A stretch of DNA of 64,000 nucleotides, taken from NCBI GenBank assembly GCA_025062045.1, contig JANXAF010000003.1:41444-105443 (forward strand), in the 5' to 3' direction. Origin of the DNA: Thermodesulfobacteriota bacterium. Lineage in GTDB: Bacteria > Desulfobacterota > Syntrophorhabdia > Syntrophorhabdales > JANXAF01. The position numbers were made by a program, and so were the translations under genes. Below are positions 708 to 15,842 of the stretch, piece by piece. Below the pieces are notes generated by a model that worked only from the letters and a program-made list of their open reading frames with translations, had not been told where the DNA came from and searched no databases. Every line of letters begins with the position of its first letter. Position 1 is the first letter of the stretch.

Positions 708-1454
708 GTGATACACATCGAAAGAGTAGGTAAAGGACCGAAAATCGTTTTCATACACGGATCCGGATGGAATACAAAAGTATGGAAAAACCAAAAAGAG
801 TATCTTAAAGACCTCTTCGAGGTTATTCTCGTTGATCTTCCAGGACACGGAAATTCTAAGGGAGAAGCTCCAAGATCTGTGGAAGAATACTCGGAAGTTT
901 TAGATAAGGTACTTTTGGAAAACTTAATCGATAAATCATATATTTGTGGGCATTCTCTCGGAGGGGCGATAGCTATGTATTTGGCCCTAAAAAGGGATGA
1001 ACTAATCAAGGGATTGATTGTAATTGGAAGCGGGGCGAGGCTTAAAGTCCTTCCAGAAATCTTAAATGGTGTATTACCCGAAAAAGAAAAGACTATTCGT
1101 TTCGTTAACTCATTAGCCTTTTCTTCCAAGGCAGAGAAAGAACTAATAGAAAAAAGCGTCTCCCAGATGATGGAGTGTCCCAGTTACGTACTTTTTAACG
1201 ATTTTTCCGCGTGTCATAACTTTGATGTTATGGACAAGGTTAAATACATTAAAGTTCCCACCCTTATCGTCTGTGGAGTCGACGACATGCTTACGCCCGT
1301 TAAGTATTCTCAGTACCTCCATAAGGAGATAAAAAATTCAAAGCTTGTACTTATAGAAGGCGCGGGCCATATGGTCATGATGGAGAAACCGATGGAACTA
1401 AATGTGGCCATCGAGTCCTTTGTAAAAGATCTGGAAAAAGGTTTTAGGGGCTAG
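708..1454 (+). CDS. alpha/beta-fold serine hydrolase (esterase/lipase-like)
   Basis: 248 aa with a GTG start. Has the nucleophile elbow GHSLGG, an HGSG oxyanion region, and a C-terminal GAGH catalytic His context. Confidence 0.8.
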   Translation: MIHIERVGKGPKIVFIHGSGWNTKVWKNQKEYLKDLFEVILVDLPGHGNSKGEAPRSVEEYSEVLDKVLLENLIDKSYICGHSLGGAIAMYLALKRDELIKGLIVIGSGARLKVLPEILNGVLPEKEKTIRFVNSLAFSSKAEKELIEKSVSQMMECPSYVLFNDFSACHNFDVMDKVKYIKVPTLIVCGVDDMLTPVKYSQYLHKEIKNSKLVLIEGAGHMVMMEKPMELNVAIESFVKDLEKGFRG

Positions 1455-1457
1455 ATT

Positions 1458-2963
1458 ATGGATGTTATAGTTGAGACAAAAAGAGGGAGACTAAAAGGAC
1501 AAAAACTTGGTGATCTTTACGTCTTTAAAGGGGTGCCATACGCAGAACCTCCAATAGGGGATCTTCGCTGGATGCCACCAAAAATGAAAGAACCTTACGG
1601 AGACATATGGGATGCTATAGAATACGGTTCCATATGCCCTCAGCCGGAGTTGGAGCTTAAAGGACTAGCAAGTTTCAAAGAAAGACAAAGTGAAGACTGC
1701 CTATACCTCAACATTTATACACCTGGGCTTGACCCAAAAAAGAGACCGGTTATGTTTTTCATACATGGAGGCGCATTTACCGTCGGTTCTTCCTCTCACC
1801 CTTTATACAGAAAAGGAAAGATGGCATTGAGAAATGACATTGTGCTTGTAACGATAAACTACAGACTTGGTCCATTGGGATTTTTAAGACTTAAGGAGAT
1901 TGGAGATGGAAGAATTAATTCCACCGGTAATGAAGGTCTTATGGATCAGATGTGTGCACTTATGTGGGTAAAAGAGAATATTGAGGCCTTTGGAGGGGAT
2001 CCCGATAACATAACACTTTTTGGGGAGTCGGCGGGAGGAATATCCATTTTTTGTCTAATCTCCATGGCGAAAGACATTAACCTTTTCAGACGGATTATAG
2101 TTCAGAGCGCAAATCCCTGCGCAATCTTTGAGAGGGAAAGGGCAAATAGTTACGCGAGAAGTTTGCTCAAAATATTAAACATAGAAGAGAATAAAATCGA
2201 TTTGCTAAAGGATCTTCCTTTTCACAAACTTGTCAAAGCTTCCGAAATACTTAGGGAAAGGATAGGTGAGTTGACAGTCTTTTCCCCAAATGTGGATGGG
2301 GAGTCGATTAAAGAAAAGCCCCTAAGCGTCATAAAGGAAAAGATAAGAGAAATGCCAATCCTTATCGGAACTAACGCAAACGAGTGGAATTTCTTTTGCC
2401 TTACAGATCCAAGGCTCCTAAATATAGATATGGACGAGCTTTATAGGATTTTAGGGAAGTCTTATCAAAAAAAAGGGGTCAAACTGATAATCGACTATTA
2501 CCGTCAAAAGCTTGAAAGAGAAGGGTTAAAACCAGAACCTTGGCGGATCTATTCGCAGTTTATGACTGACAGTTTCTTTTTAATTCCAACCTTAAAAACG
2601 GTCGACATATGGGTCGAGAAGAAAGAACCGGTGTATCTATATTATTTTACTTGGCAATCGCCATATCTTAATGGGATATTGGGTTCATGCCATACGCTAG
2701 AGCTTGGATTTCTTTTTGGGAACTACGATGAGAGATTTTTTGGATCTGGCAGAGAGGCAAAGAGGCTTTCTCAGGTGATGCAAGACGCATGGACCTCCTT
2801 CTCAAAGGATGGAAAGCCTTTTATCCAAAATCTCGGAGCTTGGAGTGATTATGGGCATGAAAAGAAGGTTATGGTTTTAGGAAAGGAATGCTATCTAACT
2901 CAGGATCCGCACAAAGATACGAGAGATTTTTATACTACACTACTTGAGTACTCGATTAAGTGA
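1458..2963 (+). CDS. type-B carboxylesterase (para-nitrobenzyl-esterase-like)
   Basis: 501 aa. Has FIHGGAFTVGS (oxyanion hole), GESAGG (nucleophile elbow) and an N-terminal G.PYA.PP.G.LRW motif. Starts 3 nt after the previous gene. Confidence 0.85.
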   Translation: MDVIVETKRGRLKGQKLGDLYVFKGVPYAEPPIGDLRWMPPKMKEPYGDIWDAIEYGSICPQPELELKGLASFKERQSEDCLYLNIYTPGLDPKKRPVMFFIHGGAFTVGSSSHPLYRKGKMALRNDIVLVTINYRLGPLGFLRLKEIGDGRINSTGNEGLMDQMCALMWVKENIEAFGGDPDNITLFGESAGGISIFCLISMAKDINLFRRIIVQSANPCAIFERERANSYARSLLKILNIEENKIDLLKDLPFHKLVKASEILRERIGELTVFSPNVDGESIKEKPLSVIKEKIREMPILIGTNANEWNFFCLTDPRLLNIDMDELYRILGKSYQKKGVKLIIDYYRQKLEREGLKPEPWRIYSQFMTDSFFLIPTLKTVDIWVEKKEPVYLYYFTWQSPYLNGILGSCHTLELGFLFGNYDERFFGSGREAKRLSQVMQDAWTSFSKDGKPFIQNLGAWSDYGHEKKVMVLGKECYLTQDPHKDTRDFYTTLLEYSIK

Positions 2964-2984
2964 GACTGAAAAAGGGGTGAAGAT

Positions 2985-4946
2985 ATGGCCCATATACTTT
3001 GGGAACCCACAGAGGAGAGAAAAAAGAATGCCAATATCACTAAATTTATAGAGTACGTTAATAGAAAGTACGGAAAAAACTTTAAAACATACGATGAGCT
3101 TTATGGGTGGTCGATTGAAAGTGTTGCAGATTTTTGGGGATCGGTTTGGGAATTCTGCGGGGTAAAAGCTTCAAAAAAATACTCATCTGTAGTTATAGAT
3201 CCTCAAAGCTTTGATAAAGCCAAATGGTTCGTTGGAGCCGAGCTAAATTTTGCAGAAAATCTTTTGAGATGGAGAGATGATCAGATAGCATTCACGTACG
3301 TTAAAGAGGGCCTAACGGGTAAGCGAACCACAACCTATAAGGATCTTTACAAGGAAGTTGCAAAACTTGCTAACGCGTATAAGGAGGAAGGAATAGAAAG
3401 GAAAGATAGGATAGTAGCTTACATACCCAATGTCATTGAAGCCGCAGTCGGCATGCTCGCAGCCTCAACGGTCGGTGCCATTTGGGCTTCCTGTGGACCA
3501 GAGCTCGGGCCAGATGCGGTGATAGATAGATTCAAAGAGTTAGAGCCTAAAATTCTGATTACTGCTGATGCGTACATCTATAAGGGTCAGGCGTACGATC
3601 TCCTAAAAAATGTGGAAATTATAGCCAAAAACATACCCTCTTTAAAAAAGGTAGTGATTGTACGGTATCTAGAAAGATCTCCCAATATAGGTAGCATCTA
3701 TAACGCAATTTTATACGACGAATTCGTAGAAGGCAAAGCAGAAGAGACAGATTTTGAACAGCTTCCCTCTGATCATCCGCACATAATACTTTTCTCATCG
3801 GGTGTCACTGGAAAGCCAAAGTGCATAGTTCACAGCCTTTCTGGTTCTCTCATTGCCCATCTTAAGACCCACATTCTTCATTTTGACATAAAAAGGGACG
3901 ACAAAGTCCTTTTCCTTTCCAGTCCCACATGGATGGTCTGGAACCTAAAAATAAGCTCTCTTGCTACAGGCTGTAACATCGTTCTTTACGATGGAAATCC
4001 CTTCTACCCTGACTTTGACGTTATCTTTAGGCTCATTATGGAGGAAAAGATCACCTGTCTTGGATGTGGTGCGGCATTTATCCTTTCCCTTATGCGGAGT
4101 GGAGTGAGACCAAAAAGTAGGTACGATCTTTCTAGTTTAAAGACTATATTCCAGACCGCAGCTCCTTTGCCTCAAGAAGGATTCGAGTATGTTTATAGCT
4201 CGATTAAGGAGGATGTTTGTCTATTGTCCGGCCTTGGGGGAACTGATGTTCAATGTGGGATTATAGAAGGGAGTCCAATTCAGCCGGTCTACAAAGGGGA
4301 GATGCCCTCCGGAGCTTTAGGATTCGCTGTGAAAGTTTATGATGAAAAGGGAAGACCTGTTCTTGACGAACCAGGAGAGCTTGTTGTGGAAAAACCATTC
4401 CCGTCAACACCCCTCTATTTTTGGGGAGATGACACGAAAAAGAAATACAAAGAAACTTACTTTTCCCTTTTTCCCAATGTGTGGAGACATGGTGATTTTG
4501 CGGTTCAAAAAAGCGAAACCGGAACTTTTATAGGGCTTGGAAGGTCGGATTTTGTTCTTAAACCGAAGGGGGTTAGGATTGGGCCTGCCGAAATCTACAA
4601 TGTGGTTGAAAGGATAGAAGAAATAGAGGATAGTCTAGTTGTGGGGCAGTCTTTCAAGGGAGACCAAAGGATAATCCTTTTTGTAAAGCTAAAAAGAGGA
4701 TACGAATTGACGGACGAATTGAAAGCAAAAATAAAAAATGAACTTAAATTGCGAGCTTCCGCAAGACATGTGCCTGAAATGATACTTGAGGTTCCTGAGA
4801 TCCCCTACACTGTTAACATGAAAAAAGTAGAAAGCGTTGTCCATAACATAGTGAACGGAAGACCCATTACTAATAGACAGACCCTCATAAATCCGGATTG
4901 CCTAGAGTACTACGAAAAACTCTATTTGGAAAAGCTAAAAGAGTAA
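2985..4946 (+). CDS. acetoacetyl-CoA synthetase (acetoacetate-CoA ligase) family adenylate-forming enzyme
   Basis: 653 aa. The N-terminus ILWEPTEERKKNANITKF...YDELYGWSIESVADFWGSVWEF is typical of AACS. Has the AMP-binding motif SSGVTGKPKCIVHS. Confidence 0.75.
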   Translation: MAHILWEPTEERKKNANITKFIEYVNRKYGKNFKTYDELYGWSIESVADFWGSVWEFCGVKASKKYSSVVIDPQSFDKAKWFVGAELNFAENLLRWRDDQIAFTYVKEGLTGKRTTTYKDLYKEVAKLANAYKEEGIERKDRIVAYIPNVIEAAVGMLAASTVGAIWASCGPELGPDAVIDRFKELEPKILITADAYIYKGQAYDLLKNVEIIAKNIPSLKKVVIVRYLERSPNIGSIYNAILYDEFVEGKAEETDFEQLPSDHPHIILFSSGVTGKPKCIVHSLSGSLIAHLKTHILHFDIKRDDKVLFLSSPTWMVWNLKISSLATGCNIVLYDGNPFYPDFDVIFRLIMEEKITCLGCGAAFILSLMRSGVRPKSRYDLSSLKTIFQTAAPLPQEGFEYVYSSIKEDVCLLSGLGGTDVQCGIIEGSPIQPVYKGEMPSGALGFAVKVYDEKGRPVLDEPGELVVEKPFPSTPLYFWGDDTKKKYKETYFSLFPNVWRHGDFAVQKSETGTFIGLGRSDFVLKPKGVRIGPAEIYNVVERIEEIEDSLVVGQSFKGDQRIILFVKLKRGYELTDELKAKIKNELKLRASARHVPEMILEVPEIPYTVNMKKVESVVHNIVNGRPITNRQTLINPDCLEYYEKLYLEKLKE

Positions 4947-5019: not shown

Positions 5020-6078
5020 TTAAATTTTAACTTTTAACAGCCATTCCCTTGTCCTTCCAGTGATTATGAGTTTTTTTTCTTTTAAATCAGCGCACGTCTT
5101 TGAACCGGTAAGAAACATGGCCACTTTTAGCTCAAGAAAAAAATTTTCTAGAAATTCGATAGTTTGCTCCACACCATTTACGGCAGATAGTAGAAGAGGT
5201 CTTGCCATCCCCACCAAATCGGCCCCAAGTGCTATGGCTTTTGCTGCATCAAGCCCTGTTCTTATGCCTCCACTGCCTATTATTGGAATGCCTAAATCTT
5301 TCACTTCAATTATGGAGATGGGCGTTGGGATTCCCCAGAAGGCGAAAGTTTGGCAGAGTCTTTGATACGTTTTATTGTTTCTAAGTTCGGCCCTCTTTTT
5401 TTCTATTAAAGCCATACTTGTGCCACCCTTACCCCCAACGTCTATCGCCGAAACACCTATACTTTTAAGTTTAGCAGCCGTTTCTTTAGAGATTCCCGAA
5501 CCCGTTTCCTTTACGATTACTGGGACAGGAAGAACACTGATAAGTCTTTCAATAGCAGAAAAGCAGCCTTTAGCGAAGGGCTCTCCTTCTATCATAACTG
5601 CTTCCTGTAGGAAGTTGAGATGGACGACAAGGGCATCCGCCTCCATCTTTTCCACGATCCTTTTTATTCTCGCTGGATTTTCAGTCGTTACCTGAACTGC
5701 ACCGATGTTGAGAAATAAAGGTACGTCAGGTGATATAAGCTTCGGGATTCTGTATGTTTTCTCGTACTCGTCTGACTCGAGAAGCGGTCTTAAACTTCCC
5801 GTTTCGAGTCCTATGGAGAAGTGTTTTGCCACGAGAGCTAAGACTCTGTTTATTTCTTCAGCTCCGCTCCAGCCTCCTGTGAGTGCCGAAATTATAAAAG
5901 GGTATTTAAAGTGCCATTTGAGGAACGATACTGAAGGATCAACCTCTCTCAAATCTAATTCAGGAAGGCATTCATGTAAGATCTCTATATCCTCCCAAAC
6001 AGAATGTCTAAATTCCACATCTTCTTTTAGAGCTATCTCTACGTGTTCTGACTTCCTTTCTGACGTATCTTTTGTCAC
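5020..6078 (-). CDS. fni: type-2 (FMN-dependent) isopentenyl-diphosphate delta-isomerase
   Basis: 352 aa. Has RKSEHVEIAL, ISALTGG, VIVKETGSGIS, IDVGGKGGTS and GSGGIRTGLDAAKAIALGA, the hallmark IDI-2 motifs. There is a 4-nt overlap with ubiX. Confidence 0.9.
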   Translation of the reverse strand: MTKDTSERKSEHVEIALKEDVEFRHSVWEDIEILHECLPELDLREVDPSVSFLKWHFKYPFIISALTGGWSGAEEINRVLALVAKHFSIGLETGSLRPLLESDEYEKTYRIPKLISPDVPLFLNIGAVQVTTENPARIKRIVEKMEADALVVHLNFLQEAVMIEGEPFAKGCFSAIERLISVLPVPVIVKETGSGISKETAAKLKSIGVSAIDVGGKGGTSMALIEKKRAELRNNKTYQRLCQTFAFWGIPTPISIIEVKDLGIPIIGSGGIRTGLDAAKAIALGADLVGMARPLLLSAVNGVEQTIEFLENFFLELKVAMFLTGSKTCADLKEKKLIITGRTREWLLKVKI

Positions 6079-6653
6079 CTTTTATGGTTCCCCCATCTTT
6101 CAAAGAGGCGGGCATCTATGCCGAACATATCTAGAACCTTACCAACGGTCTGGTCGATGATGTCCTCTATTGATTTAGGTTTATGGTAGAATGAGGGGAC
6201 AGGAGGCATAATAATTCCACCCATCCGAGTCACCCTGAGCATAAGTCTCAAGTGTCCTTCATGTAGAGGGGTTTCTCTCACAACAAGAACGAGCCTTCTT
6301 CTCTCTTTGAGGGTGACATCTGCGGCCCTGACTAAGAGATTGTGATTGAAGGAGTTAGCTATTGCCGAAAGTGTCTTAATGGTGCATGGTATCACTATCA
6401 TCCCATCCATTATGCATGAACCACTGGCAATCGGGGCTGTAAGATCATCTATATCGTAAACCCTTTGGGCCATGGCTTTTACGTCCTCAAGCTTGAATGG
6501 CGTCTCTATTTCGATGTTTTTTATTCCTGCATCAGTTATGATTAAGTGAACCTCTTGCCCCTTTTTATGGAGGATTTCTAGTGTCCTTATCCCGTATACA
6601 ACCCCGGTTGCACCGGTTATTCCTAGTATAATCTTCTTTTTTTCATGAGCCAT
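6075..6653 (-). CDS. ubiX: flavin prenyltransferase UbiX (prFMN synthase)
   Basis: 192 aa. Has GITGATGVVYGIRTLEIL, IVIPCTIKTLSAIANS and PPVPSFYHKP. Overlaps the upstream UbiD gene by 11 nt. Confidence 0.9.
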   Translation of the reverse strand: MAHEKKKIILGITGATGVVYGIRTLEILHKKGQEVHLIITDAGIKNIEIETPFKLEDVKAMAQRVYDIDDLTAPIASGSCIMDGMIVIPCTIKTLSAIANSFNHNLLVRAADVTLKERRRLVLVVRETPLHEGHLRLMLRVTRMGGIIMPPVPSFYHKPKSIEDIIDQTVGKVLDMFGIDARLFERWGNHKR

Positions 6654-7995
6654 ATTTTTTCACTATACTTTCTACGAGTTCCTTTTCCCCTTTCTTTACA
6701 ACAGCCCTTCCCTCCATTTCCTTCCCGTAAGTTGTAGCATTTATTCCAATTTTCGTTACGCCTCCCATTATTTTTGCCTCAGGATCTATTGGTTGACCCT
6801 GCATAGAAAAAAGCAGGATGAGATCATCTTTGGCAAAACATCTGGTAACAATTGCCCACTCAATCTCCTGCAAATCGTAAGGATCGACATCGCTATCTAC
6901 AATAACAGCTTTTTTTATCATGGGAAAAGAAAGGACGAAGTGTAAAAGGTTATTTATCCTCTTCCTCTCCGTAGGGCTTGTGGTTATGACTATCGATGAG
7001 CCAAAAGTCCTTTCGAGAAAAACGATCTCATGTACAAAGGGAAATAGTCTTTTTACGTTTCCTTCCATGTGGGCCTTACTCACAAATGTAAGGTACATAT
7101 CAGCTTCCAAGCTTGTGGGAAGTAACGCGTGATATATGGGGTCTTTCCTGTACGAAATCCTATTTATATGGACAGTAGGTGTCCTTTCAATCGTCATATA
7201 GTACCCACTTATCTCTCCTAGAGGGCCGTCTTTTTCTTCCTCCTCCAGGTGTATTACCCCTTCAAGTATAAACTCCGTTCCGTACGGCACATCTATATCA
7301 GAGTCGAAGGACCTAATAACTGCTATGCTTTCCCCTCGAAGGGAGCCTGCAACTTCAATTTTGTCCACGTTGTTAGGGATCTTAAGAGCCATAGCCATAA
7401 AAGTTAGAGGATCCACACCAATAGATACGGAAACGGGCATTTTTTTATTCTCGAGCTTGTATTTTTCCTTGATATCGGCAAGGGGAGGGTTGACAAGGGA
7501 GATACCGAACCTATTTTTTCCTCTATACTCCATCCTGTGGATCCCTCGCCCAACGACCTTCGTTTCAGGATCATAGGAGGATACAATAGCTGTAGTTATG
7601 TAAGGCGCCGAATCACTTTCATAGTGTTTCAGAATCGGTATTGTCGTAAGGACATCGTCATTTTCGGTCACATTGATAGATATGTAATCGCCTCTTTCTT
7701 GAACGAAGGTCTTTTTTAAAATCCCAGAACTTCTTTCTACAAAGGCAGAGTAAGGATCATTTTCTCCTGGAAAGAGAAGATTGAAAACCTTCTGCGAGGG
7801 TACAAGGTTAGCAACAACTCGACAATCGTAACCGTCCAAACTTTCAAAAAGTAGGGCTTTGCCAGTCCTCGATAGTCTTTGTATGATTTCTGGCAAAGCC
7901 TCCTTTTTGACCTTATCTCGGATCGAGATAAGAAGGTTTTCTCTTTTTAGCAGATCGAGATACTCACGAAGCGATCGAATAATTCCTTTTTCCAT
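6643..7995 (-). CDS. UbiD-family (prFMN-dependent) decarboxylase/carboxylase, third paralog in the operon
   Basis: 450 aa. Has the UbiD signature GRGIHRMEY and DGPLGEISGYY (compare E.GPFGE.TGYY). Its start overlaps the stop of the 81-aa gene (TGATG). Confidence 0.85.
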   Translation of the reverse strand: MEKGIIRSLREYLDLLKRENLLISIRDKVKKEALPEIIQRLSRTGKALLFESLDGYDCRVVANLVPSQKVFNLLFPGENDPYSAFVERSSGILKKTFVQERGDYISINVTENDDVLTTIPILKHYESDSAPYITTAIVSSYDPETKVVGRGIHRMEYRGKNRFGISLVNPPLADIKEKYKLENKKMPVSVSIGVDPLTFMAMALKIPNNVDKIEVAGSLRGESIAVIRSFDSDIDVPYGTEFILEGVIHLEEEEKDGPLGEISGYYMTIERTPTVHINRISYRKDPIYHALLPTSLEADMYLTFVSKAHMEGNVKRLFPFVHEIVFLERTFGSSIVITTSPTERKRINNLLHFVLSFPMIKKAVIVDSDVDPYDLQEIEWAIVTRCFAKDDLILLFSMQGQPIDPEAKIMGGVTKIGINATTYGKEMEGRAVVKKGEKELVESIVKKYGS

Positions 7996-8240
7996 CAGAA
8001 GGGTTTCACTTCTTCAAGTATCATTACCGAACACGGTTTGTCCACAAGCTGCCCTCTCCCAAGCCTTACCCACAAAGTGTTAGGGTATTTAGCTGGATCT
8101 TTGGATATCCGAAATTTAGCGTATATGCCTTTGTATTTGGTTTTTCCAGGGCTTAGATCTCTTAAAACGCCCGTTATTTCCTCGTCCTCTTTGAGTTCTT
8201 CAAAGTCCTTTGTTATGAAAGTGTCGTAGACTTTACCCAT
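7995..8240 (-). CDS. small (81 aa) protein; candidate small subunit of the UbiD/HAD carboxylase complex (PpcC-like by size and position only)
   Basis: GGAGGG SD 5-6 nt upstream of the ATG. Translationally coupled to the downstream UbiD gene. I recognise no motif in it. Confidence 0.6.
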   Translation of the reverse strand: MGKVYDTFITKDFEELKEDEEITGVLRDLSPGKTKYKGIYAKFRISKDPAKYPNTLWVRLGRGQLVDKPCSVMILEEVKPF

Positions 8241-8249
8241 ATTTCCCTC

Positions 8250-9695
8250 CTAATCTTTGAATCCATAGTCCTTCCAATTTTTTATAACCTTCTCTTGTAC
8301 ATCTTTGGGATAAACTTCTCTGAAGCTTACCTTTGTCGGAAGGAAAGCTTTTGGCCACTCCAAAGGAAAGGTGCAATCAAGCACAACCTTAGGAGACTTC
8401 TGAGAAAAGCGTTCTTCCGGACTAGCAAAGGGGTTAAGTGGGGTTCCGGCACCAAAAGGCATAAGTATTGTTCCCCTTACCGGATGCCACTTGGTGCATA
8501 TGGAATGGATGACTTCTTCTAAGCTGTATATGTCCGTAGTGTCGTCCACAACGACAACAATGTGAAACCAGGCGGCCGCTTTGCTTCCAAGAACGAGGGA
8601 TGCAACCTGTTGAGCTATTCCAGAATAAACAGGCTTTACGCCCACAACTAGAAGGTGATGGGTCGATTCTGGCCACATATAAACACCAGTTATGGGCAGT
8701 CCCTGGCTTTTGAGAAGAAGTTCCATGTCCATCGCGAGTGTGAAAGATCTAAGTAGCTGTCCTTCGTCTACCGGAACTCCCATGTTTGAAACGGTCATAA
8801 TCGCGTTTTTTCTCATTGTAATACATTTGACTCTGTAAACGCACCTTTTGTCCCTTGGGCTCGTTCTATACCCGGTATATTCGCCGAATGGCGCCTCTTC
8901 AAGTCTAGCGTTTGGTAAAACCTCGCCCTCTATCACTATCTCGGCAGTTGCAGGAACGTAAAGATCGTTAGTTTCACACTTGACGAGCTTTACTGGCTCG
9001 CCCATAAGCTGCCCTGTGAATTCCGCCTCAGGCAAAGGAGTAGGAGCTAAACTCGCCAAAGCAGACAAAGGATCGGGCCCAATAACTGTGGCAAAAGGCA
9101 TAGGCTTTCCTTTGGCTTCGTACTTTGTGTAGAAGATCTTCCCCATGTCGGAAAAAGGAAGGACAGGTCCAACCATCGTCTTTTCATCGAATATCATCTG
9201 CCTATACATACCCCAGTTTACAAATCCCGTCTCTTCATCTTTTGCCACAATAAAATGCCAAGTGCCTATGTATCGTCCCCCATCGCCGTCGTGAACCATA
9301 GGGGCAGGCAAATCAAATAGGCTTATATCATCTCCATCCAATATTATCTCTTTGCAAGGAGCATCCTTTTTGTCTACAATCTCGGGCTTATGACAAGGCC
9401 CGGATGTTCTCCTCCTCCACTCGTCCACAATTCCAGATATGGGTGTCTCGGGTGGAAGACCAAGGACTACAGCCAATCTTCTCCATGTCGCAATTGGAGC
9501 TCCGAAGGCAGAAAACCCAGGATAGTCTTTAATCTTGTGAAAATAAGGAGCCGGGCCCTTTTTTTCACAGGTCCTTCGGACTATCGCACCAAGTTCCAAA
9601 TCCCAGTCTACCTCCTCGTGGATGTCGACGAGATCACCCGACTTTCTAAGTGCCTCTACATATTCTCTGTTATCGATAAAATACTTGTAAGCCAT
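8250..9695 (-). CDS. UbiD-family carboxylase subunit (phenylphosphate carboxylase alpha/beta-like)
   Basis: 481 aa. Has NWGMYRQMIFDE and EAPFGEYTGYRT UbiD motifs. Sits in an operon with HAD phosphatase-like genes. Confidence 0.8.
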   Translation of the reverse strand: MAYKYFIDNREYVEALRKSGDLVDIHEEVDWDLELGAIVRRTCEKKGPAPYFHKIKDYPGFSAFGAPIATWRRLAVVLGLPPETPISGIVDEWRRRTSGPCHKPEIVDKKDAPCKEIILDGDDISLFDLPAPMVHDGDGGRYIGTWHFIVAKDEETGFVNWGMYRQMIFDEKTMVGPVLPFSDMGKIFYTKYEAKGKPMPFATVIGPDPLSALASLAPTPLPEAEFTGQLMGEPVKLVKCETNDLYVPATAEIVIEGEVLPNARLEEAPFGEYTGYRTSPRDKRCVYRVKCITMRKNAIMTVSNMGVPVDEGQLLRSFTLAMDMELLLKSQGLPITGVYMWPESTHHLLVVGVKPVYSGIAQQVASLVLGSKAAAWFHIVVVVDDTTDIYSLEEVIHSICTKWHPVRGTILMPFGAGTPLNPFASPEERFSQKSPKVVLDCTFPLEWPKAFLPTKVSFREVYPKDVQEKVIKNWKDYGFKD

Positions 9696-9716: not shown

Positions 9717-10271
9717 TTACAAACTCAAACTGTTTAAAACCTCATCCCATTTTCCCTGTGCCCTAAGTATAAATTCCGCAACCTCCCTTACTACACCTTG
9801 GCCGCCCTTTGCCTCTGTAACCAGATCGGCTATCTCTTTTGCTTCCTTTGAAGCGTCTTGAGGAGCAACGGAGAATCCAGCCCTTCTCATCATTCCAAGG
9901 TCTATCATCTCGTCCCCTATATAACACATCTCTTCATCTCTGAAGCCGTATTTATTTTGCATCTCGGTTGTAAGAGCCATCTTCTGTGAACTTCCCCACA
10001 AAAATTCCTCTGGAACTCCGTAGATCTTTGAGACGGCCTGATCTGCACGGGATATCTTACTTGTGAGGAATGCGGTACGGATTCCCGCTTCATGAAGCAG
10101 CTTAAAACCGATTCTATCCCTTAGAGAGAATCGCTCAGATTTTATACCTTCGGGAGTGTAATATAGGGTGTTGTCGGTTAAGACTCCGTGAATGTCGATG
10201 ACCACGAAAGTGACTTTTTTTGCCTTCTCTATCGCTCCTTCTTTTACTTTTGCATTTTCTCTTAACTTCAT
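9717..10271 (-). CDS. HAD-superfamily KdsC-like phosphatase homolog (phenylphosphate carboxylase delta-like), paralog 2
   Basis: 184 aa. Collinear with KdsC: motif I is DIHGVLTD (KdsC has DVDGVLTD), plus FLTSK, GSSQK and GDEMID. Confidence 0.75.
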   Translation of the reverse strand: MKLRENAKVKEGAIEKAKKVTFVVIDIHGVLTDNTLYYTPEGIKSERFSLRDRIGFKLLHEAGIRTAFLTSKISRADQAVSKIYGVPEEFLWGSSQKMALTTEMQNKYGFRDEEMCYIGDEMIDLGMMRRAGFSVAPQDASKEAKEIADLVTEAKGGQGVVREVAEFILRAQGKWDEVLNSLSL

Positions 10272-10280
10272 AGCGACCCC

Positions 10281-10844
10281 CTATTTGTAACCCATCTTTG
10301 TCACTTTATCGACCCATTCATCCCATATCCCTTTTGCTCTTAAAATGAACTCGCATATTTCTCTCATAGCGCCCCTTCCGCCAGGAACAGATGTTACGTA
10401 GACTGCCAGCTCTTTTACCTCATCTGCCGCGTCACTAGTGGCCACAGGAAATCCAACTTTTTTCATAAAGGGTATGTCGAATAGCTCGTATCCCAAATAA
10501 CCTATCTCTTCGTCCAGAACACCGAATTCCTTCTTTAGTTCTTCCAACTTTGCCATTTTCTCCTTTGGGGTTACCTTGTAATAGTATTTTTCAAGTTTCA
10601 ACTCTTTTGCCCTGTGTAAGCCTTCGTTATCGATTGAAGTGCTATCGAGAAAGATAGGAATAATCCCATTTGCCGAAAGGGAAAGATCACCGAATCCGTC
10701 CATGTGCCAGAAATCGTATCTCCTTTGTCCTTCTTGGTCACAATAGACAGAATCGGTGGTTAGCACACCGTGGATATCGTGGACGAAGACTCTTACCCTT
10801 TTTGCCCTCTCTTCGGCTTCTTTTAGGTTTTTTTCGTGTCTCAT
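10281..10844 (-). CDS. HAD-superfamily KdsC-like homolog, paralog 1, with a degenerate metal-binding motif
   Basis: 187 aa. Motif I is HDIHGVLTTD. Motif IV reads GYELFD instead of GDxxxD. The C-terminal GGRGAMREICEFIL is KdsC-like. Confidence 0.7.
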   Translation of the reverse strand: MRHEKNLKEAEERAKRVRVFVHDIHGVLTTDSVYCDQEGQRRYDFWHMDGFGDLSLSANGIIPIFLDSTSIDNEGLHRAKELKLEKYYYKVTPKEKMAKLEELKKEFGVLDEEIGYLGYELFDIPFMKKVGFPVATSDAADEVKELAVYVTSVPGGRGAMREICEFILRAKGIWDEWVDKVTKMGYK

Positions 10845-10855
10845 GATGCCCCCCT

Positions 10856-12283
10856 TTAAATATCACTTAGACCGAGCTCATCCCAACGGGATTTTACATT
10901 CTTTAAAACCTCCTCATTAAGTCTCACTTCCACAGGCTTCTGGGTCCACTCGTAAGGAATCGTTGCATTTATAAGAATACGGGGAGTGATAAACTTGTTA
11001 TCTTCAGGCCCCAATGACGGATCAAGTGGAGTGGACCTCCCCCTCTGTATTATCTGTGTCCCCCGCAGCGGATTATAACGTACCCCCAATGCCCACCACA
11101 CCCTTGGAAGGTCATCGGCCTCAATATCATCATCAACTACTATCACACCCTTCACTCCATACATTCCTGTATTGGAAGCTATGACGGCATGGGCTACCTG
11201 CTCGGCATGACCTGGATACATCTGTCTTACAGAGACGATGACCCAGAATCTGCCCGCCGCCTCGGGAAGAGTGTAGACAGACTGGATCCCGGGTATCTTC
11301 ATGCTTTCAAGCTCAGTCCAAAGGGCGGCATTCCTGGCGAAGGCGTAAAGCATGTGTTGGTCACCAACCGGTCTACCGACTGTAGTTGCAACAAGTATGG
11401 GGTTTGTTCTAAAGTATATCCTCTTAATCTCTATTACAGGTTTGGGAAGGGGCTTGAAGAGTTCTTCAGTGTAATATCCCGTATACTCGCCAAATGGCCC
11501 TTCTTCCTTCATCACACTGGGATCTATCTCCCCTTCTATTGCTATCTCCGCATCTGCAGGAAATGGCAATCCTGTAAGTTCACCTTTAACTAGATTCAGC
11601 GGTTCTCCCCTCAGTGTGCTTACTGCGTCGTACGCGCTTTTGACACCGGGCAAAGTAGCGGCGCTTGCTATCATTAGCAACGGATCCCCCCCCATAACGA
11701 CACATACTGGCATCTTCTTTCTTGCCTTTGCGTATCTTTGAAGTATCCTGTCTGTCGTCTTTCCTTTAAGGATCTGGACGCCTAAGTGTCTTTCGTCATG
11801 GACACCCATCCTAAAGGTACCGAGATTTATTCTGCCAGTTTCTGGATCCTGACTAACCATATAGACGGCAGTTCCAAAATAGCGATGTCCATCCTTTTCG
11901 TAGTATTTGGGGACCGGAAAATCTAGAACACTGGCCTTATCCCCGTCTTTTACATTTTCAAATATCGGCCCCGTTGATACCTCTTTTGACTCAAGTTGTG
12001 CTTTTGGCTGGGTGAGCGTCTTCATCCATTCCCTCGTAAGCTCAACTAAAGAGGCAGTTCCAGGTTTTCCCATTATGTCCGAGAGTCTCCTTACTGTGGC
12101 ATACAATCCAGTTATTACCGGGCTCGAATAGCCCTTTACGTTTTCGAAAAGCAAGGATGGACCGTTTCTTTCTTCAACGAGTTTAGCCACGTGGGAGAGT
12201 TCGAGGTTCCAATCAACAGGAGCCTTTATCCTTCTTAATTGGCCTTCTTTTTCCCATTTCTGGATGAAGTATCTAAGGTCCAT
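10856..12283 (-). CDS. UbiD-family carboxylase subunit (phenylphosphate carboxylase alpha/beta-like), first gene of the operon
   Basis: 475 aa. Has NLGTFRMGVHDE and EGPFGEYTGYYT. A G-rich SD lies upstream. Confidence 0.8.
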   Translation of the reverse strand: MDLRYFIQKWEKEGQLRRIKAPVDWNLELSHVAKLVEERNGPSLLFENVKGYSSPVITGLYATVRRLSDIMGKPGTASLVELTREWMKTLTQPKAQLESKEVSTGPIFENVKDGDKASVLDFPVPKYYEKDGHRYFGTAVYMVSQDPETGRINLGTFRMGVHDERHLGVQILKGKTTDRILQRYAKARKKMPVCVVMGGDPLLMIASAATLPGVKSAYDAVSTLRGEPLNLVKGELTGLPFPADAEIAIEGEIDPSVMKEEGPFGEYTGYYTEELFKPLPKPVIEIKRIYFRTNPILVATTVGRPVGDQHMLYAFARNAALWTELESMKIPGIQSVYTLPEAAGRFWVIVSVRQMYPGHAEQVAHAVIASNTGMYGVKGVIVVDDDIEADDLPRVWWALGVRYNPLRGTQIIQRGRSTPLDPSLGPEDNKFITPRILINATIPYEWTQKPVEVRLNEEVLKNVKSRWDELGLSDI

Positions 12284-12309: not shown

Positions 12310-12347
12310 ATTATCAGTGGAATAACCGTGATTGTCAATTCAGTTAT
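12310..12347. promoter_or_regulatory. divergent promoter/operator region between the UbiD operon and the LysR gene
   Basis: On the minus strand: TTGACA (12338-12333), a 17-nt spacer, GATAAT (12315-12310), about 27 nt before the ATG at 12283. On the plus strand: TTGTCA (12332-12337) and TATATA near 12356. Dyads are TTAT-N7-ATAA (12311-12325, T-N11-A type) and ATAAC-N16-GTTAT (12322-12347). Confidence 0.4.
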
Positions 12348-13392: not shown

Positions 13393-13977
13393 ATGGGACA
13401 GAAAGATTGGGCTAATCCTGCGCCATGGGCTATCCAGTCCGTGGCTGTTCTTACGGCCTGTGCAGGTTTTGTTTTTGCTGGACTTGTGCCTGAATCTAGC
13501 GTACCACTTATAATTGGGATTCTACTTTCCTGCGTAATTCCACAGCTAATAGGAGGCATAATCCTATTCAGAAGAAATGAAATCCTTCTAGGTACCATCT
13601 GTGCTCTTTTCGGCACAGTGATAACGATGGGGGCTGCCTTTACCCTTTACGAGATCGTGTTTATGGCTCCGAAAGCGGGTGCTTTTACCCCGGAACTCTT
13701 GGGAGTGTTTTGGTTCGTGCTTTTTATAATAACTGAGGTTTTTGCCATCGGTTTCGGAAGGGCAAGCTGGTTTTTACTTCTTGGAATAGCTGAAGTGGGA
13801 GTGGCATTCCTCTTTTTGAGCATCAACGCATGGACGGGTTCCCAGATTGCTGGAATTATCGGAGGCTGGCTCCTTATTTTATTTTCTGCTTTTTGCATCT
13901 ATGCTTCTTCGGCTCTTCTTCTTGCCGAGCATTTTGAAAAACCTATCTTACCGATAGGAAGGCCTATATTCAAATAA
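13393..13977 (+). CDS. AceTr / GPR1-FUN34-YaaH (SatP-like) family carboxylate channel
   Basis: 194 aa with about 6 hydrophobic helices. Has the N-terminal family signature ANPAPW (E. coli SatP has ANPAPLG) and the C-terminal LPIG as in SatP. Strong GGGGGG SD. Confidence 0.7.
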   Translation: MGQKDWANPAPWAIQSVAVLTACAGFVFAGLVPESSVPLIIGILLSCVIPQLIGGIILFRRNEILLGTICALFGTVITMGAAFTLYEIVFMAPKAGAFTPELLGVFWFVLFIITEVFAIGFGRASWFLLLGIAEVGVAFLFLSINAWTGSQIAGIIGGWLLILFSAFCIYASSALLLAEHFEKPILPIGRPIFK

Positions 13978-13988
13978 AGGGGGGAACT

Positions 13989-15842
13989 ATGAGACATACC
14001 ACGAAATTTCCTGACCCACACGAATATTTAAAAGAGATACCAGAAGAACTCTCCGGCTGGGAGGAGATGTACCCGCCCCACTTCCTCTTCGGAAAAGAAA
14101 GAGAGGAGTGGGAAAAAAGACAATTCTGGTATTTGGACAAGATACATGCTCCGAACCCGATGCCACCACTCGATCACATATTCCAGCAAGCTTGGCAGAT
14201 CTCACTCTCCCAGCACACTACAAGAGTTTTCTGTATTCCTCCTGCCCAAGGCGTAGCCCACAGAATAGTTGGGTGCTACCAGTACATCTGTGCAGTTGAG
14301 CCGCCACCTGAGGAAATAGTTGCCGAAAAGGCGGTCTTTTTCAAAGAGAGGGCCCATTACCCTGTTGAGCACTATGATGAACTATGGGATGAGTGGCTGA
14401 AAAGGTTCAGAGCCCTGGGAGAAGAATTACGAAACATTAAGGTACCGGAGCTATTACCGAAGTATCTTTCCCGGGAAGAGGTTTATCCCAACGACTACAG
14501 AGGTTACACTCAGGCGTACGAACTTATAGAAGCCTTCGACAGAATGGTTGACCTTTTGTACAAGGGGTGGCAGTACCACTTCAATCTTTTAAACCTTTGT
14601 TACCTTTACTATCTTATGTTTTATGACCTCGCAAGGAAGCTATTTCCGGGAATAAGCGAAAGTGCGATAGGGAAAATGATAGCAGGAGTTGAGGCTTACA
14701 TGTTTAAACCAGAAGAAGAACTCTGCAGACTCGCAAGGAGAGCCCATGCCGAACCGAAAGTTGCGGAGATACTCAAAAAGGATAAGCCCGCAAAAGAGAA
14801 GATGGAGGAACTCAAGACATTTGAGGTTGGAAGAAGATGGCTCGACGAACTTGAGGACTCAAAGGATCCATGGTTCTATGTGAGCTGCGGAAGTGGGTGG
14901 TACCATTACGAGGGAAGCTGGATAAATAATCTTGATATACCTTTCGGATACTTAAAGAGTTATCTCGAAAGGTTGGATAGGGGAGAAAAGATTGAAAGGT
15001 CACTTAGCGAGATTGCGGAAGCGAGAGAAAAGATTGTGAGCGAGTATAAAAGGCTCATAAAGACTGATGAAGACAGAGAAAGCTTTGAGAGTGCCTACCG
15101 CGATTGTCTAACCTTGTACAGATTCGCCGAAGGCCACATATTCTGGGTTGAGAACTGGCTCCACACAATATGGTTCGAAAAGGCAAGAGAAGTCGGAAGG
15201 GTTCTCGTTAAAGCCGGTGCTCTCAAGCACGAAGATGACATATTCATGTTCAACAGGCTCGAAATCCCGACTCTCATAGAAGACGTATGCACCGCCTGGG
15301 CACTTGGAGAGGGGGTACCCACGCTTAAATGGGCTGAGAAGGCAGAGAAGAGAAGAAAGATACTGGAGGCTGCCGCAAAATGGACACCTTCTCCCGCTTT
15401 AGGAGTACCTCCGAAAGAAGTTGCGGAGCCCTTTACTGTTATGCTCTGGGGTATAACGACTGAAAAGGTCGAAGAGTGGTTAAAAGGTGTGTCAATAAAA
15501 CCGGAAGAGGTGGTGGAGATAAAAGGTTTCGCTTCCTCCAAAGGCCAGGTAGAAGGTCCGGCAAGGGTCGTAAAGACCATAGAGGAGATAGTCACGCTCC
15601 AGGAGGGAGAGATACTAGTTTGTCCGTCAACCAATCCATCTTGGGCTCCTGTCTTTACGAAGATAAAAGCGGCTGTTACGGACATTGGAGGGGTTACATG
15701 CCACGCGGCAATCGTGGCAAGAGAATACGGGCTTCCTTCAGTCACTGGGACTGGAATTGCAACCCAGGTGATAAAGACGGGAGACATAATAAGGGTGGAT
15801 GGAGATACAGGTGTTGTGACAATTATAAAAAGGGCCGCATAA
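13989..15842 (+). CDS. PEP-utilising-enzyme family protein with a C-terminal phospho-histidine swivel domain (phenylphosphate synthase alpha-like)
   Basis: 617 aa. The C-terminus VTDIGGVTCHAAIVAREYGLPSVTG is the mobile-domain His motif. The N-terminus PEELSGWEEMYPPHFLF is typical of PpsA-like proteins. Confidence 0.75.
   Translation: MRHTTKFPDPHEYLKEIPEELSGWEEMYPPHFLFGKEREEWEKRQFWYLDKIHAPNPMPPLDHIFQQAWQISLSQHTTRVFCIPPAQGVAHRIVGCYQYICAVEPPPEEIVAEKAVFFKERAHYPVEHYDELWDEWLKRFRALGEELRNIKVPELLPKYLSREEVYPNDYRGYTQAYELIEAFDRMVDLLYKGWQYHFNLLNLCYLYYLMFYDLARKLFPGISESAIGKMIAGVEAYMFKPEEELCRLARRAHAEPKVAEILKKDKPAKEKMEELKTFEVGRRWLDELEDSKDPWFYVSCGSGWYHYEGSWINNLDIPFGYLKSYLERLDRGEKIERSLSEIAEAREKIVSEYKRLIKTDEDRESFESAYRDCLTLYRFAEGHIFWVENWLHTIWFEKAREVGRVLVKAGALKHEDDIFMFNRLEIPTLIEDVCTAWALGEGVPTLKWAEKAEKRRKILEAAAKWTPSPALGVPPKEVAEPFTVMLWGITTEKVEEWLKGVSIKPEEVVEIKGFASSKGQVEGPARVVKTIEEIVTLQEGEILVCPSTNPSWAPVFTKIKAAVTDIGGVTCHAAIVAREYGLPSVTGTGIATQVIKTGDIIRVDGDTGVVTIIKRAA

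Follow-up and report, generated by a model that had tools for sequence, protein, structure and literature searches.

Organization of the Locus

Within the window, i.e., the whole stretch of 64,000 nucleotides that was analyzed, two KdsC-like genes of the HAD type lie side by side in an operon for a phenylphosphate carboxylase. An earlier note on this DNA had placed the pair at 9717-10844, and these coordinates correspond exactly to two complete ORFs of the minus strand. The following genes and features were assigned:

12310-12338, minus strand: promoter-like site TTGACA-17-GATAAT upstream of ppcB, 11/12 matches in a consensus scan, a pattern match only
10856-12283, minus strand: ppcB, UbiD-family beta subunit, first gene of the operon; TIGR02724, 621.6 bits (cut-off 468.95)
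10281-10844, minus strand: upstream HAD paralog (family B, putative delta-prime), complete ORF, 187 aa
9717-10271, minus strand: downstream HAD paralog (family A, putative delta), complete ORF, 184 aa
8250-9695, minus strand: ppcA, UbiD-family alpha subunit; TIGR02723, 646.6 bits (cut-off 564.6)
7995-8240, minus strand: ppcC, gamma subunit, 81 aa; PF09662 (Phenyl_P_gamma), 48.1 bits (cut-off 25)
6643-7995, minus strand: third UbiD-family gene of the operon; Pfam UbiD_N, UbiD and UbiD_C, TIGR00148 with 267 bits
6075-6653, minus strand: UbiX flavin prenyltransferase, which makes prFMN; TIGR00421, 257.5 bits
5020-6078, minus strand: type 2 isopentenyl-diphosphate isomerase, last gene of the operon; TIGR02151, 374.6 bits (cut-off 281.3)
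13989-15842, plus strand: divergent ppsA-like gene, phenylphosphate synthase; NF006153, 816 bits
15874-16950, plus strand: divergent ppsB-like gene, phenylphosphate synthase, resembling the N-terminal part of PEP synthase

The gene order is thus ppcB, HAD, HAD, ppcA, ppcC, with the HAD pair directly upstream of ppcA. Both HAD genes are encoded on the same strand with a gap of 9 nt, and in front of each lies a G-rich ribosome-binding site. The sequence reads TAA-AGGGGGGCATC-ATG after ppcB and TAG-GGGGGTCGCT-ATG between the two HAD genes. A scan of the operon sequence revealed no convincing terminator inside it. The pair is accompanied by only one set of alpha, beta and gamma genes.

A similarly organized cluster is that of Thauera aromatica, in which a KdsC-like HAD gene is part of a ppcB-delta-ppcA-ppcC cluster adjoining phenylphosphate synthase genes. 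The position directly upstream of ppcA is common to the window, Thauera aromatica (locus L070) and 55 other HAD-bearing loci. However, T. aromatica carries one HAD gene at this position where the window has two, which agrees with the single delta subunit that the earlier note had ascribed to the classical cluster.

Affiliation of the Two HAD Proteins

Both paralogs matched the HAD model Hydrolase_3 of Pfam as well as the KdsC and phenyl_P_delta models of NCBIfam, and in sequence searches both retrieved KdsC crystal structures (E values of 1e-30 for the downstream and 7e-27 for the upstream copy). The PpcD equivalog TIGR02726 was the best-scoring model for both, although the scores of 132.7 and 103.1 bits are far below its cut-off of 281.95. 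This cut-off presumably reflects seed sequences of the Thauera/Aromatoleum type; sequences of that type reached only 142-157 bits against the profiles built here from families A and B. With the KdsC subfamily model TIGR01670 (cut-off 106.95) the downstream copy scored just above the threshold (111.7) and the upstream copy below it (88.4), and with the KdsC equivalog NF007019 (cut-off 208) both stayed far below (112.6 and 95.1, respectively).

KdsC shares with the window proteins the fold, the size, a flap hairpin between motifs I and II and a C-terminal helix with a tail. The AF2 models of both copies (pLDDT 88.8 for the upstream and 89.0 for the downstream copy, pTM 0.85-0.87) contain this hairpin, which is the region of lowest confidence, as expected of an element that becomes ordered only in the oligomer. 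A structure search was performed with the model of the upstream copy alone, and its best PDB matches were all KdsC with a TM score of about 0.8. No structure of a phenylphosphate carboxylase or of a delta subunit was found in sequence and structure searches of the PDB.

The genomic context differs: kdsC genes are embedded in the order kdsD-kdsC-lptC-lptA-lptB of lipopolysaccharide synthesis, whereas the context in the window is aromatic (phenol) degradation. An identity of the pair as ordinary KdsC was rejected on the basis of gene context, phylogeny and the D-x-H motif described below. The assignment of both proteins as delta-like HAD subunits of KdsC fold belonging to the phenylphosphate carboxylase operon is supported.

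Conserved Motifs

Motifs I and IV of the two copies were read from the sequence:

10176-10196, minus strand: motif I of the downstream copy, D-I-H-G-V-L-T, D26-T32 (His28 codon 10188-10190)
9900-9917, minus strand: intact motif IV of the downstream copy, G119-D-E-M-I-D124
10758-10778, minus strand: motif I of the upstream copy, D-I-H-G-V-L-T, D23-T29 (His25 codon 10770-10772)
10476-10493, minus strand: degenerate motif IV of the upstream copy, G118-Y-E-L-F-D123 (Tyr119 codon 10488-10490)

They agree with the earlier reading of D-I-H-G-V-L-T in both copies, GYELFD upstream and GDEMID downstream. The KdsC motif given there for comparison, D-V-D-G-V-L-T, is likewise in accordance with the KdsC structures, which read D-V-D-G-V-L-(S/T) in contrast to the D-I-H-G-V-L-T of the window proteins. 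The residue at Asp+2 of motif I is the general acid/base of HAD enzymes (bioRxiv 10.64898/2026.09.11.751015), and neither copy has an Asp there (His28 downstream, His25 upstream).

Apart from this exchange, the downstream copy has kept its catalytic motifs. The nucleophile Asp26 and Lys97 of motif III are present in 121/121 members of family A, Thr70 of motif II does not vary and corresponds in the alignment to the Thr of KdsC and of Thauera PpcD, and the motif IV consensus of the family is GDEMID, with G, D, E and the second D in all 121 sequences and M and I in 120. Its flap has been altered, the Gly of the DG.G motif being replaced by Arg (D52-R53, Arg53).

In the upstream copy the nucleophile Asp23 is kept (121/121 members of family B), and His22, His25, Thr29 and Asp123 are invariant within the family as well; motif III comprises Lys96, the position being occupied by Lys in 114 and Arg in seven members. 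On the basis of these residues the upstream copy might still have some phosphoryl-binding or transfer function. The first Asp of motif IV is a direct Mg ligand, as follows from homology with KdsC and phosphoserine phosphatase. The earlier note had described the loss of this ligand for the window copy, and the loss extends over the family: the position is taken by Cys in 101, Ser in 12 and Tyr in five of 121 members, Tyr being the residue in the window, which results in the pattern G[C/S/Y]ExxD with an invariant second Asp. A family-wide loss of the putative Mg-ligand Asp from the upstream paralog is thereby supported, and the Cys found in most members could bind a softer metal.

A second exchange in the upstream copy, which the earlier note had missed, concerns motif II, where the Thr position is occupied by Asp67. 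This Asp is invariant across family B and is directly followed by a Ser or Thr in the upstream copy, and a shifted register of motif II is possible.

The flap of the upstream copy has retained the ancestral form WHMDGFGD with the Gly of the DG.G motif, DGFG being kept throughout family B, and its C-terminal KMGYK tail is invariant in the family. Family B has invariant surface-type motifs of its own in addition to the KMGYK tail, both of which are missing from family A. Measured against the residues conserved across the sampled KdsC-like groups, the losses are complementary: the motif II Thr and the motif IV Asp in family B, the flap Gly in family A.

Phylogeny and Distribution

D-x-H was present in all 240 closest homologs examined (120 per paralog), with the His invariant in both families. 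Among the 150 nearest cluster representatives at 50% identity, there were 143 motif I-type matches with Asp at +2, and true D-x-H occurred in the family A cluster only. In a neighbor-joining tree of 174 columns the D-x-H sequences formed a clade with a bootstrap support of 99/100, to which both paralogs belong together with a single-copy form occurring mainly in Bacillota. Family A, family B and the Thauera-type clade were each recovered in 100 of 100 replicates, and in 70 replicates families A and B were each other's closest relatives, with the single-copy D-x-H form outside. All PpcD-like sequences stood apart from 20 KdsC representatives in 77/100 bootstraps; the window proteins, in a clade apart from these KdsC sequences, may share their descent with the characterized PpcD. 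A first midpoint-rooted neighbor-joining tree had placed the single-copy group beside family B, a position which reached a bootstrap value of only 8/100 and was rejected.

PpcD of Thauera, Aromatoleum and Sulfuritalea is encoded by one copy with the canonical motifs DVDGVMTD and GDDLVDL in 26/26 loci, in contrast to the two copies of the window with His at Asp+2, one of which is also degenerate in motifs II and IV. Judged from these alignments, D-x-H is a conserved trait of one clade and no sequencing quirk, and it is not common to all PpcD proteins. The earlier note had also named canonical DxD in PpcD homologs, together with a placement among ordinary KdsC phosphatases, as findings that would speak against its reading; the former was encountered in the Thauera type, whereas neither protein falls among ordinary KdsC.

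The single-copy D-x-H delta was found in Thermincola (L020), Moorellales (L042 and L068) and Syntrophomonadaceae (L023). It reads D-V-H-G-V-L-T and GDEIID, its gene has the position upstream of ppcA that the window pair has, and it shares the 99%-supported clade with this pair. Intact motifs II and IV as in family A are joined here with a flap of the type H-x-DGFG and a C-terminal K..G tail as in family B. As far as the compared sequences tell, this form combines features that were later split between the two paralogs.

The two copies of the window share 38% identity, and each belongs to a large, highly conserved family of its own. Of the 80 genome loci retrieved, 17 carry the ordered pair, B followed by A. 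They belong mostly to Thermodesulfobacteriota and Syntrophorhabdia, and in 15 of them the pair is located immediately upstream of ppcA. Families A and B branch in parallel across the pair loci. The low identity, the two separate families and the conservation of the ordered pair across many loci indicate, at the level of sequence comparison, that the duplication is old and not recent; the expression "tandem duplicated" of the earlier note is thus not appropriate in the sense of a local event.

Both paralogs are under strong purifying selection with dN/dS values of 0.02-0.10, for which about half of the sequence pairs were excluded because of saturated synonymous sites. Where dS was measurable, the values amounted to 0.04-0.10 for the downstream and 0.02-0.09 for the upstream paralog, so that selection on the degenerate copy is as strong as on the intact one. 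In the related lineage L081 the upstream copy is even more degenerate (DVPGVLT with Pro at Asp+2, and GSQVTE), and its partner reads DIHGVLT and GDEIID.

Paired delta genes or D-x-H were not mentioned in the literature found on ppcD, the delta subunit, prFMN structures and Syntrophorhabdus. In Desulfatiglans anilini a solitary KDO-8-P phosphatase gene at another genomic location is taken as the putative delta (PMC6114531, PMC7500099). This case was dropped as a precedent for two delta subunits, since a lone gene away from the cluster has no bearing on the question.

Discussion

In anaerobic phenol degradation, phenylphosphate carboxylase is the key enzyme for the formation of the C-C bond, and it catalyzes one of the rare biological para-carboxylations that run to completion. 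To our knowledge, all mechanistic information on it originates from the Thauera enzyme. PpcD of T. aromatica is its 18-kDa delta subunit (Schuhle and Fuchs 2004, via PMC6114531, PMC7500099), which presumably takes the phosphate off phenylphosphate and delivers phenolate to the carboxylase core (PMC6114531, PMC7500099). For Thauera only, it is reported to restore phenylphosphate carboxylation to the alpha/beta/gamma core and, alone, to hydrolyze phenylphosphate slowly (PMC6114531). By analogy, the same role is presumed for the delta of the window.

From the observed anatomy, conservation, selection, phylogeny and operon context we infer a division of labor within a hetero-oligomer and a role for the His. 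With some reservation we consider it probable that the pair serves the phenylphosphate carboxylase of strict anaerobes as a hetero-oligomer of KdsC type, in which a catalytic delta is joined by a delta-prime without catalytic function. The downstream protein would be the catalytic delta, having retained Asp26, Thr70, Lys97 and the GDEMID metal site. Its Asp26 would accept the phosphoryl group from phenylphosphate, and phenolate would be handed over to the UbiD-type alpha/beta/gamma core. With His28 in place of the general acid/base, a neutral imidazole would be unable to protonate the phenolate, a good leaving group as it stands; the same residue could still activate water for hydrolysis of the acyl-phosphate. 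The upstream protein, from which the Mg-ligand Asp and the phosphate-binding Thr are gone, would be a non-catalytic or strongly impaired delta-prime.

KdsC-type HADs are tetramers in which the cap over each active site is contributed by the neighboring subunit. For this reason it is proposed that delta and delta-prime co-assemble, e.g., as A2B2, in which the flap and tail of delta-prime might complete or gate the active site of delta, or dock delta onto the carboxylase core. KdsC-fold units without phosphatase residues, beside or within an active enzyme, are also represented by two other cases resembling delta-prime in this respect. The C-terminal domain of vertebrate CMP-sialic acid synthetase (PDB 3ewi), which was among the PDB matches of the window proteins, is an inactive KdsC-like domain that functions as a tetramerization platform. 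The fused double KdsC P0363 (L086) comprises one canonical and one degenerate domain (N-V-D, GGELTD) and is encoded in an LPS gene cluster, a true KdsC context. Unlike the window, neither case involves a phenylphosphate carboxylase or D-x-H.

The earlier proposal that the degenerate copy is a structural or regulatory subunit gains weight from Asp67 in motif II, from the more degenerate relative in L081 and from the equally strong purifying selection. Less could be retained of the proposal that the loss of Asp+2 would fit the release of phenolate instead of phenol. The only biochemically studied PpcD type, that of Thauera and Aromatoleum, keeps DVDGVMTD and GDDLVDL, and loss of Asp+2 is therefore not needed for phenylphosphate carboxylation. 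Since the Thauera-type protein works with DxD as a single copy, the chemistry requires neither the His nor a second subunit, and the argument is at most a clade-specific refinement.

It is possible but rather improbable that phosphotransfer from aryl phosphates is catalyzed by both paralogs, by the upstream one with another metal site (Cys/His/Asp; e.g., Mn, Fe or Zn) or another substrate such as a different phenolic phosphate or phenylphosphoamidate. The conservation of Asp23, His22, His25, Thr29, Lys and Asp123 in family B and its strong purifying selection are compatible with an active enzyme, as is the predominance of Cys at the lost Asp position (101/121), and the phenylphosphate carboxylase of Thauera works with either Mg2+ or Mn2+ (PMC6114531). 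Yet this position is not kept as a ligand, being Cys, Ser or Tyr, with Tyr in the window itself; an acidic Asp67 in place of the motif II Thr should repel phosphate; the upstream copy of L081 has Pro at Asp+2 and GSQVTE as motif IV; and only a single alpha/beta/gamma gene set stands beside the pair. It is likewise improbable that the upstream copy functions in assembly or docking with the UbiD-type subunits, and not delta, as its target, e.g., delta-prime with beta and delta with alpha. The order ppcB, delta-prime, delta, ppcA, which sets each HAD gene beside one UbiD paralog, would suit such a function, and so would the invariant surface-type motifs and KMGYK tail that family A lacks; accessory proteins assisting UbiD enzymes are known, LpdD being an example (PMC10865409). 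Against it, the single-copy clusters of the Thauera and Bacillota types have the same alpha/beta pair with one HAD, and the flap and tail of B type are already found on the single-copy D-x-H form.

A much smaller chance is given to the idea that the pair is a phosphoryl-transfer relay and no hydrolase, sparing the phosphoryl group of phenylphosphate. The Thr at +2 of P-type ATPases is associated with a long-lived aspartyl-phosphate, and the aspartyl-phosphate on the catalytic subunit might be long-lived as well without the general base at Asp+2. The conserved His/Asp-rich pocket of the degenerate partner (His22, Asp23, His25, His47, Asp67) might then hand the phosphoryl group on to an acceptor other than water. 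A redundant recent tandem duplicate with one decaying copy and no special function has a practically negligible probability: the two genes are neighbors of similar length with the same orientation, and catalytic residues are missing from one of them, but the copies share only 38% identity, both families are large and highly conserved, and the pair is conserved with parallel branching over many loci, with dN/dS of the degenerate copy at 0.02-0.09. The reading as a recent duplicate or pseudogene was rejected because of these identity, conservation and selection data.

Many strict anaerobes, among them Thermodesulfobacteriota, Syntrophorhabdia and Desulfosarcina, thus possess a set of small subunits different from that of Thauera, with two paralogs that both carry His at Asp+2. 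As a natural experiment, the pair bears on the coupling between phosphate removal and carboxylation and on the question of whether phenolate must be preserved as the leaving group. As a catalytic delta with a non-catalytic partner, it would also be a clean example of subfunctionalization into enzyme and pseudoenzyme within a capless HAD tetramer. With the relay, if true, phenol activation would cost energy-limited sulfate reducers and syntrophs less net ATP. Homologous genes are currently labeled "KdsC," "KDO 8-P phosphatase," "HAD hydrolase" or "hypothetical"; these labels hide complete ppc operons in metagenomes and call for a correction of the annotation.

Organization of the ppc Operon

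The two HAD genes belong to a tightly packed minus-strand operon of eight genes, which either overlap or are separated by no more than 21 nt:

12338-12310, minus: promoter-like TTGACA-17-GATAAT, upstream of ppcB
10856-12283, minus: ppcB (TIGR02724, 621.6 bits; cut-off 468.95)
10281-10844, minus: HAD protein, 187 aa, second gene (upstream copy, family B)
9717-10271, minus: HAD protein, 184 aa, third gene (downstream copy, family A)
8250-9695, minus: ppcA (TIGR02723, 646.6 bits; cut-off 564.6)
7995-8240, minus: ppcC (Pfam Phenyl_P_gamma)
6643-7995, minus: third UbiD-family gene, after ppcC
6075-6653, minus: ubiX
5020-6078, minus: type 2 isopentenyl-diphosphate (IPP) isomerase, last gene, overlapping the end of ubiX

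Only 9 nt lie between the HAD genes, each is preceded by a GGGGG-type ribosome-binding site, and no convincing internal terminator was found in the operon. Genes for a LysR regulator and ppsA-like and ppsB-like phenylphosphate synthase genes diverge from it. Between the regulator and the ppsA-like gene, a very hydrophobic 194-aa ORF (13393-13977, plus) without Pfam or NCBIfam match may encode a small membrane protein tied to phenol uptake or tolerance. The operon is closed by the region 5020-6653 (minus), where the IPP isomerase gene, following the third UbiD gene and ubiX, seems to provide the operon with its own dimethylallyl donor for making prFMN. Genes for an alpha/beta hydrolase, a 501-aa carboxylesterase-family protein and an acetoacetate-CoA ligase (708-4946, plus) adjoin the phenol operon, and the esterases might act on phenyl esters to liberate phenol.

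Fold, Motifs and Family Assignment

The earlier note, whose observation of two delta-like HAD subunits was confirmed as a whole and whose interpretation was supported in part, was correct in all its sequence statements: motif I reads D-I-H-G-V-L-T in both proteins, motif IV reads G-Y-E-L-F-D in the upstream and G-D-E-M-I-D in the downstream copy, and KdsC crystal-structure sequences have D-V-D-G-V-L. Pfam and NCBIfam matches assign both proteins to the KdsC-fold HADs, and in a PDB sequence search both matched KdsC structures (E 1e-30 and 7e-27). The AF2 models reached pLDDT 88.8 (upstream) and 89.0 (downstream) with pTM 0.85 and 0.87; for the upstream model, the one searched against the PDB, the best matches were all KdsC (TM ~0.8). 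Sequence searches with both proteins and the fold search with the upstream model found no PpcD structure in the PDB.

Gene context, phylogeny and motif I set the two proteins apart from KdsC. Functionally the pair belongs to PpcD, although both proteins fall below the equivalog cut-off of the PpcD model TIGR02726 (132.7 and 103.1 vs 281.95), which we take to mirror Thauera-type seed sequences. Public annotations of the homologs read ‘KDO 8-P phosphatase’, ‘KdsC family phosphatase’, ‘HAD hydrolase’ or ‘hypothetical protein’. Paired delta genes and D-x-H went unmentioned in full-text literature searches that targeted phenylphosphate carboxylase, ppcD and the delta subunit, which is weak evidence as subscription journals lay mostly outside these searches.

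Distribution and Phylogeny of the D-x-H Type

For an unbiased view of the HAD motifs, ppc loci were collected by a PpcA alignment scan with one genome per species, and profiles of families A and B were used to class every HAD ORF in the 80 loci returned. Three small-subunit architectures were distinguished. The tandem pair, B followed by A, occurs in 17 loci (Thermodesulfobacteriota, Syntrophorhabdia, Desulfosarcina, Desulfobacterales, Deltaproteobacteria and unclassified bacterial MAGs), in 15 of them directly upstream of ppcA. Thirteen loci have a single copy with D-V-H-G-V-L-T and GDE[IV]ID; their hosts include Thermincola, Moorellales, Syntrophomonadaceae, other Bacillota and some deltaproteobacterial MAGs. 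In 26 complete loci and one partial locus the single copy is canonical (D-V-D-G-V-M-T-D, GDDLVDL); among them are those of Thauera aromatica (L070), Aromatoleum, Azoarcus, Sulfuritalea, a Desulfuromonadales and an Ardenticatenaceae genome.

Strict adjacency fails in two loci: L018 (3193-6089) has an AMP-dependent CoA-ligase gene separating B from A, and in L012 (2129-3262) the pair is on the strand opposite to ppcA and ~7 kb away from it. Two single-copy D-x-H clusters (L013, L021) stem from short contigs assigned to Kiloniellaceae and Dermatophilaceae bins. An anaerobic phenol pathway would not be expected in these hosts, and the contigs may have been mis-binned. PpcA-like UbiD matches of 40-48% identity (L057, L059-L061, L064, L065, L067, L069, L071-L080) had no HAD gene within the fetched flanks of up to 10 kb each side and are probably other aromatic (de)carboxylases, not phenylphosphate carboxylases.

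His at the +2 position was found in all 240 closest homologs. Among the best 150 representatives of 50%-identity clusters (1.84 billion proteins), true D-x-H was confined to the family A cluster, and 143 motif I-type matches had Asp at +2. In a neighbor-joining tree (97 sequences, 174 columns, 100 bootstrap replicates) the D-x-H sequences, comprising A, B and the single-copy form, formed one group (99/100). A, B and the Thauera type each received 100, A and B grouped together to the exclusion of the single-copy D-x-H form in 70/100, and all PpcD-like proteins stood apart from KdsC representatives in 77/100. These groupings indicate that D-x-H is a clade trait: it holds throughout A, B and the single-copy form, whereas the Thauera type has DxD. 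The simplest history would be a KdsC-derived PpcD ancestor that gave rise to DxD and DxH lineages, with one later duplication in the DxH lineage producing A and B.

The upstream and downstream proteins share 38% identity, and each has its own large family (531 public proteins at E<=1e-10 for the A query, a count that probably includes single-copy delta types, and 251 for the B query); family A was defined by the best 120 of the 531 matches, all at least 62% identical. Contigs of equal length recurred in the A and B match lists, a first hint that the two genes occur together. The wording ‘tandem duplicated’ is thus not borne out in the sense of a recent event, and a recent duplicate with a decaying copy is excluded by the data. 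That the degenerate upstream copy is not decaying is indicated by its dN/dS of 0.02-0.09 (0.04-0.10 for A), calculated from pairs with unsaturated synonymous sites.

Complementary Losses in Families A and B

Residues were compared by column-by-column conservation of the family alignments. Family A keeps the nucleophile Asp26, Thr70 of motif II, Lys97 of motif III and GDEMID in motif IV, with both Asp in 121/121 sequences; it has no C-terminal extension, and Arg or Lys replaces the ‘D-G-x-G’ flap Gly common to the KdsC-like groups sampled (Asp52-Arg53 in the window). Family B retains Asp23, His25, Thr29, Lys96, the flap W-H-M-D-G-F-G-D and an invariant C-terminus …VTKMGYK, and carries an invariant Asp67 in place of the motif II Thr. 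Its first motif IV position is mostly occupied by Cys (101 of 121 sequences), followed by Ser (12) and Tyr (five, with Tyr119 in the window); the Asp lost here corresponds, by homology with KdsC and phosphoserine phosphatase, to the direct Mg2+ ligand. The single-copy D-x-H form has both sets, namely intact motifs II and IV, an H-x-D-G-F-G flap and a K..G tail. Complementary loss after duplication would be expected to leave this pattern.

Another type of tandem pair was found in two loci of one lineage, with the gene order ppsAB, ppcB, HAD, HAD, ppcA, ppcC:

L081, 4716-5830: tandem HAD pair
L082, 2778-3892: tandem HAD pair

Its upstream copy (P0361) is more degenerate than B (D-V-P-G-V-L-T, G-S-Q-V-T-E), its downstream copy has D-I-H-G-V-L-T and GDEIID, and the two are much closer to each other (54% identity) than the window pair (38%). 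Outside ppc loci, L086 (7001-8062) encodes a fused double KdsC of 353 aa (P0363) in a kdsD-kdsC-lptC-lptA-lptB-rpoN context. Its first domain is canonical (DVDGVLT, GDDLID); the second has Asn for the nucleophile Asp and GGELTD as motif IV, and the protein is an independent catalytic-plus-degenerate KdsC pairing.

B could have an activity of its own that involves another metal or another substrate: its nucleophile is still present, as are several His and Asp, and the lost ligand is often replaced by Cys. The Cys/Ser/Tyr variability at this very position, Asp67 and the L081 variant argue against such an activity. B could also dock onto PpcB instead of A, as hinted at by the gene order, but single-copy systems work with the same alpha/beta pair.

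Proposed Mechanism

Coupling of phenylphosphate to the alpha/beta/gamma core depends in Thauera on the delta subunit, which by itself shows slow phenylphosphate hydrolysis (PMC6114531, PMC7500099). The downstream protein would be delta with this catalytic role, and the upstream protein a non-catalytic partner, delta-prime. KdsC-type HADs have no cap domain; the active site is covered by the flap of a tetramer neighbor and, in Escherichia coli KdsC, also by the neighbor's C-terminal tail. PDB titles among the fold matches, such as ‘YrbI lacking the last 8 residues’, are consistent with this arrangement. Delta-prime would lend its ancestral flap and tail to the active site of delta within a mixed tetramer, a proposal in keeping with the complementary losses, with the fixed gene order and with a tight coupling of translation.

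The earlier note had argued that loss of Asp+2 suits an enzyme releasing phenolate for carboxylation. Since the biochemically characterized enzyme from Thauera carries DxD, this replacement is not required for phenylphosphate carboxylation in general and would be at most a refinement within one clade. Phenolate (pKa ~10) should need little acid catalysis to leave and would have to stay deprotonated for carboxylation; His at +2 could still serve as base for acyl-phosphate hydrolysis.

The phenylphosphate carboxylase small subunit occurs here in a widespread two-paralog D-x-H form, in which a putative division into enzyme (A) and pseudoenzyme (B) finds good support in the sequences. Such a form would be somewhat surprising to specialists and offers clear testable handles on an enzyme without a structure.
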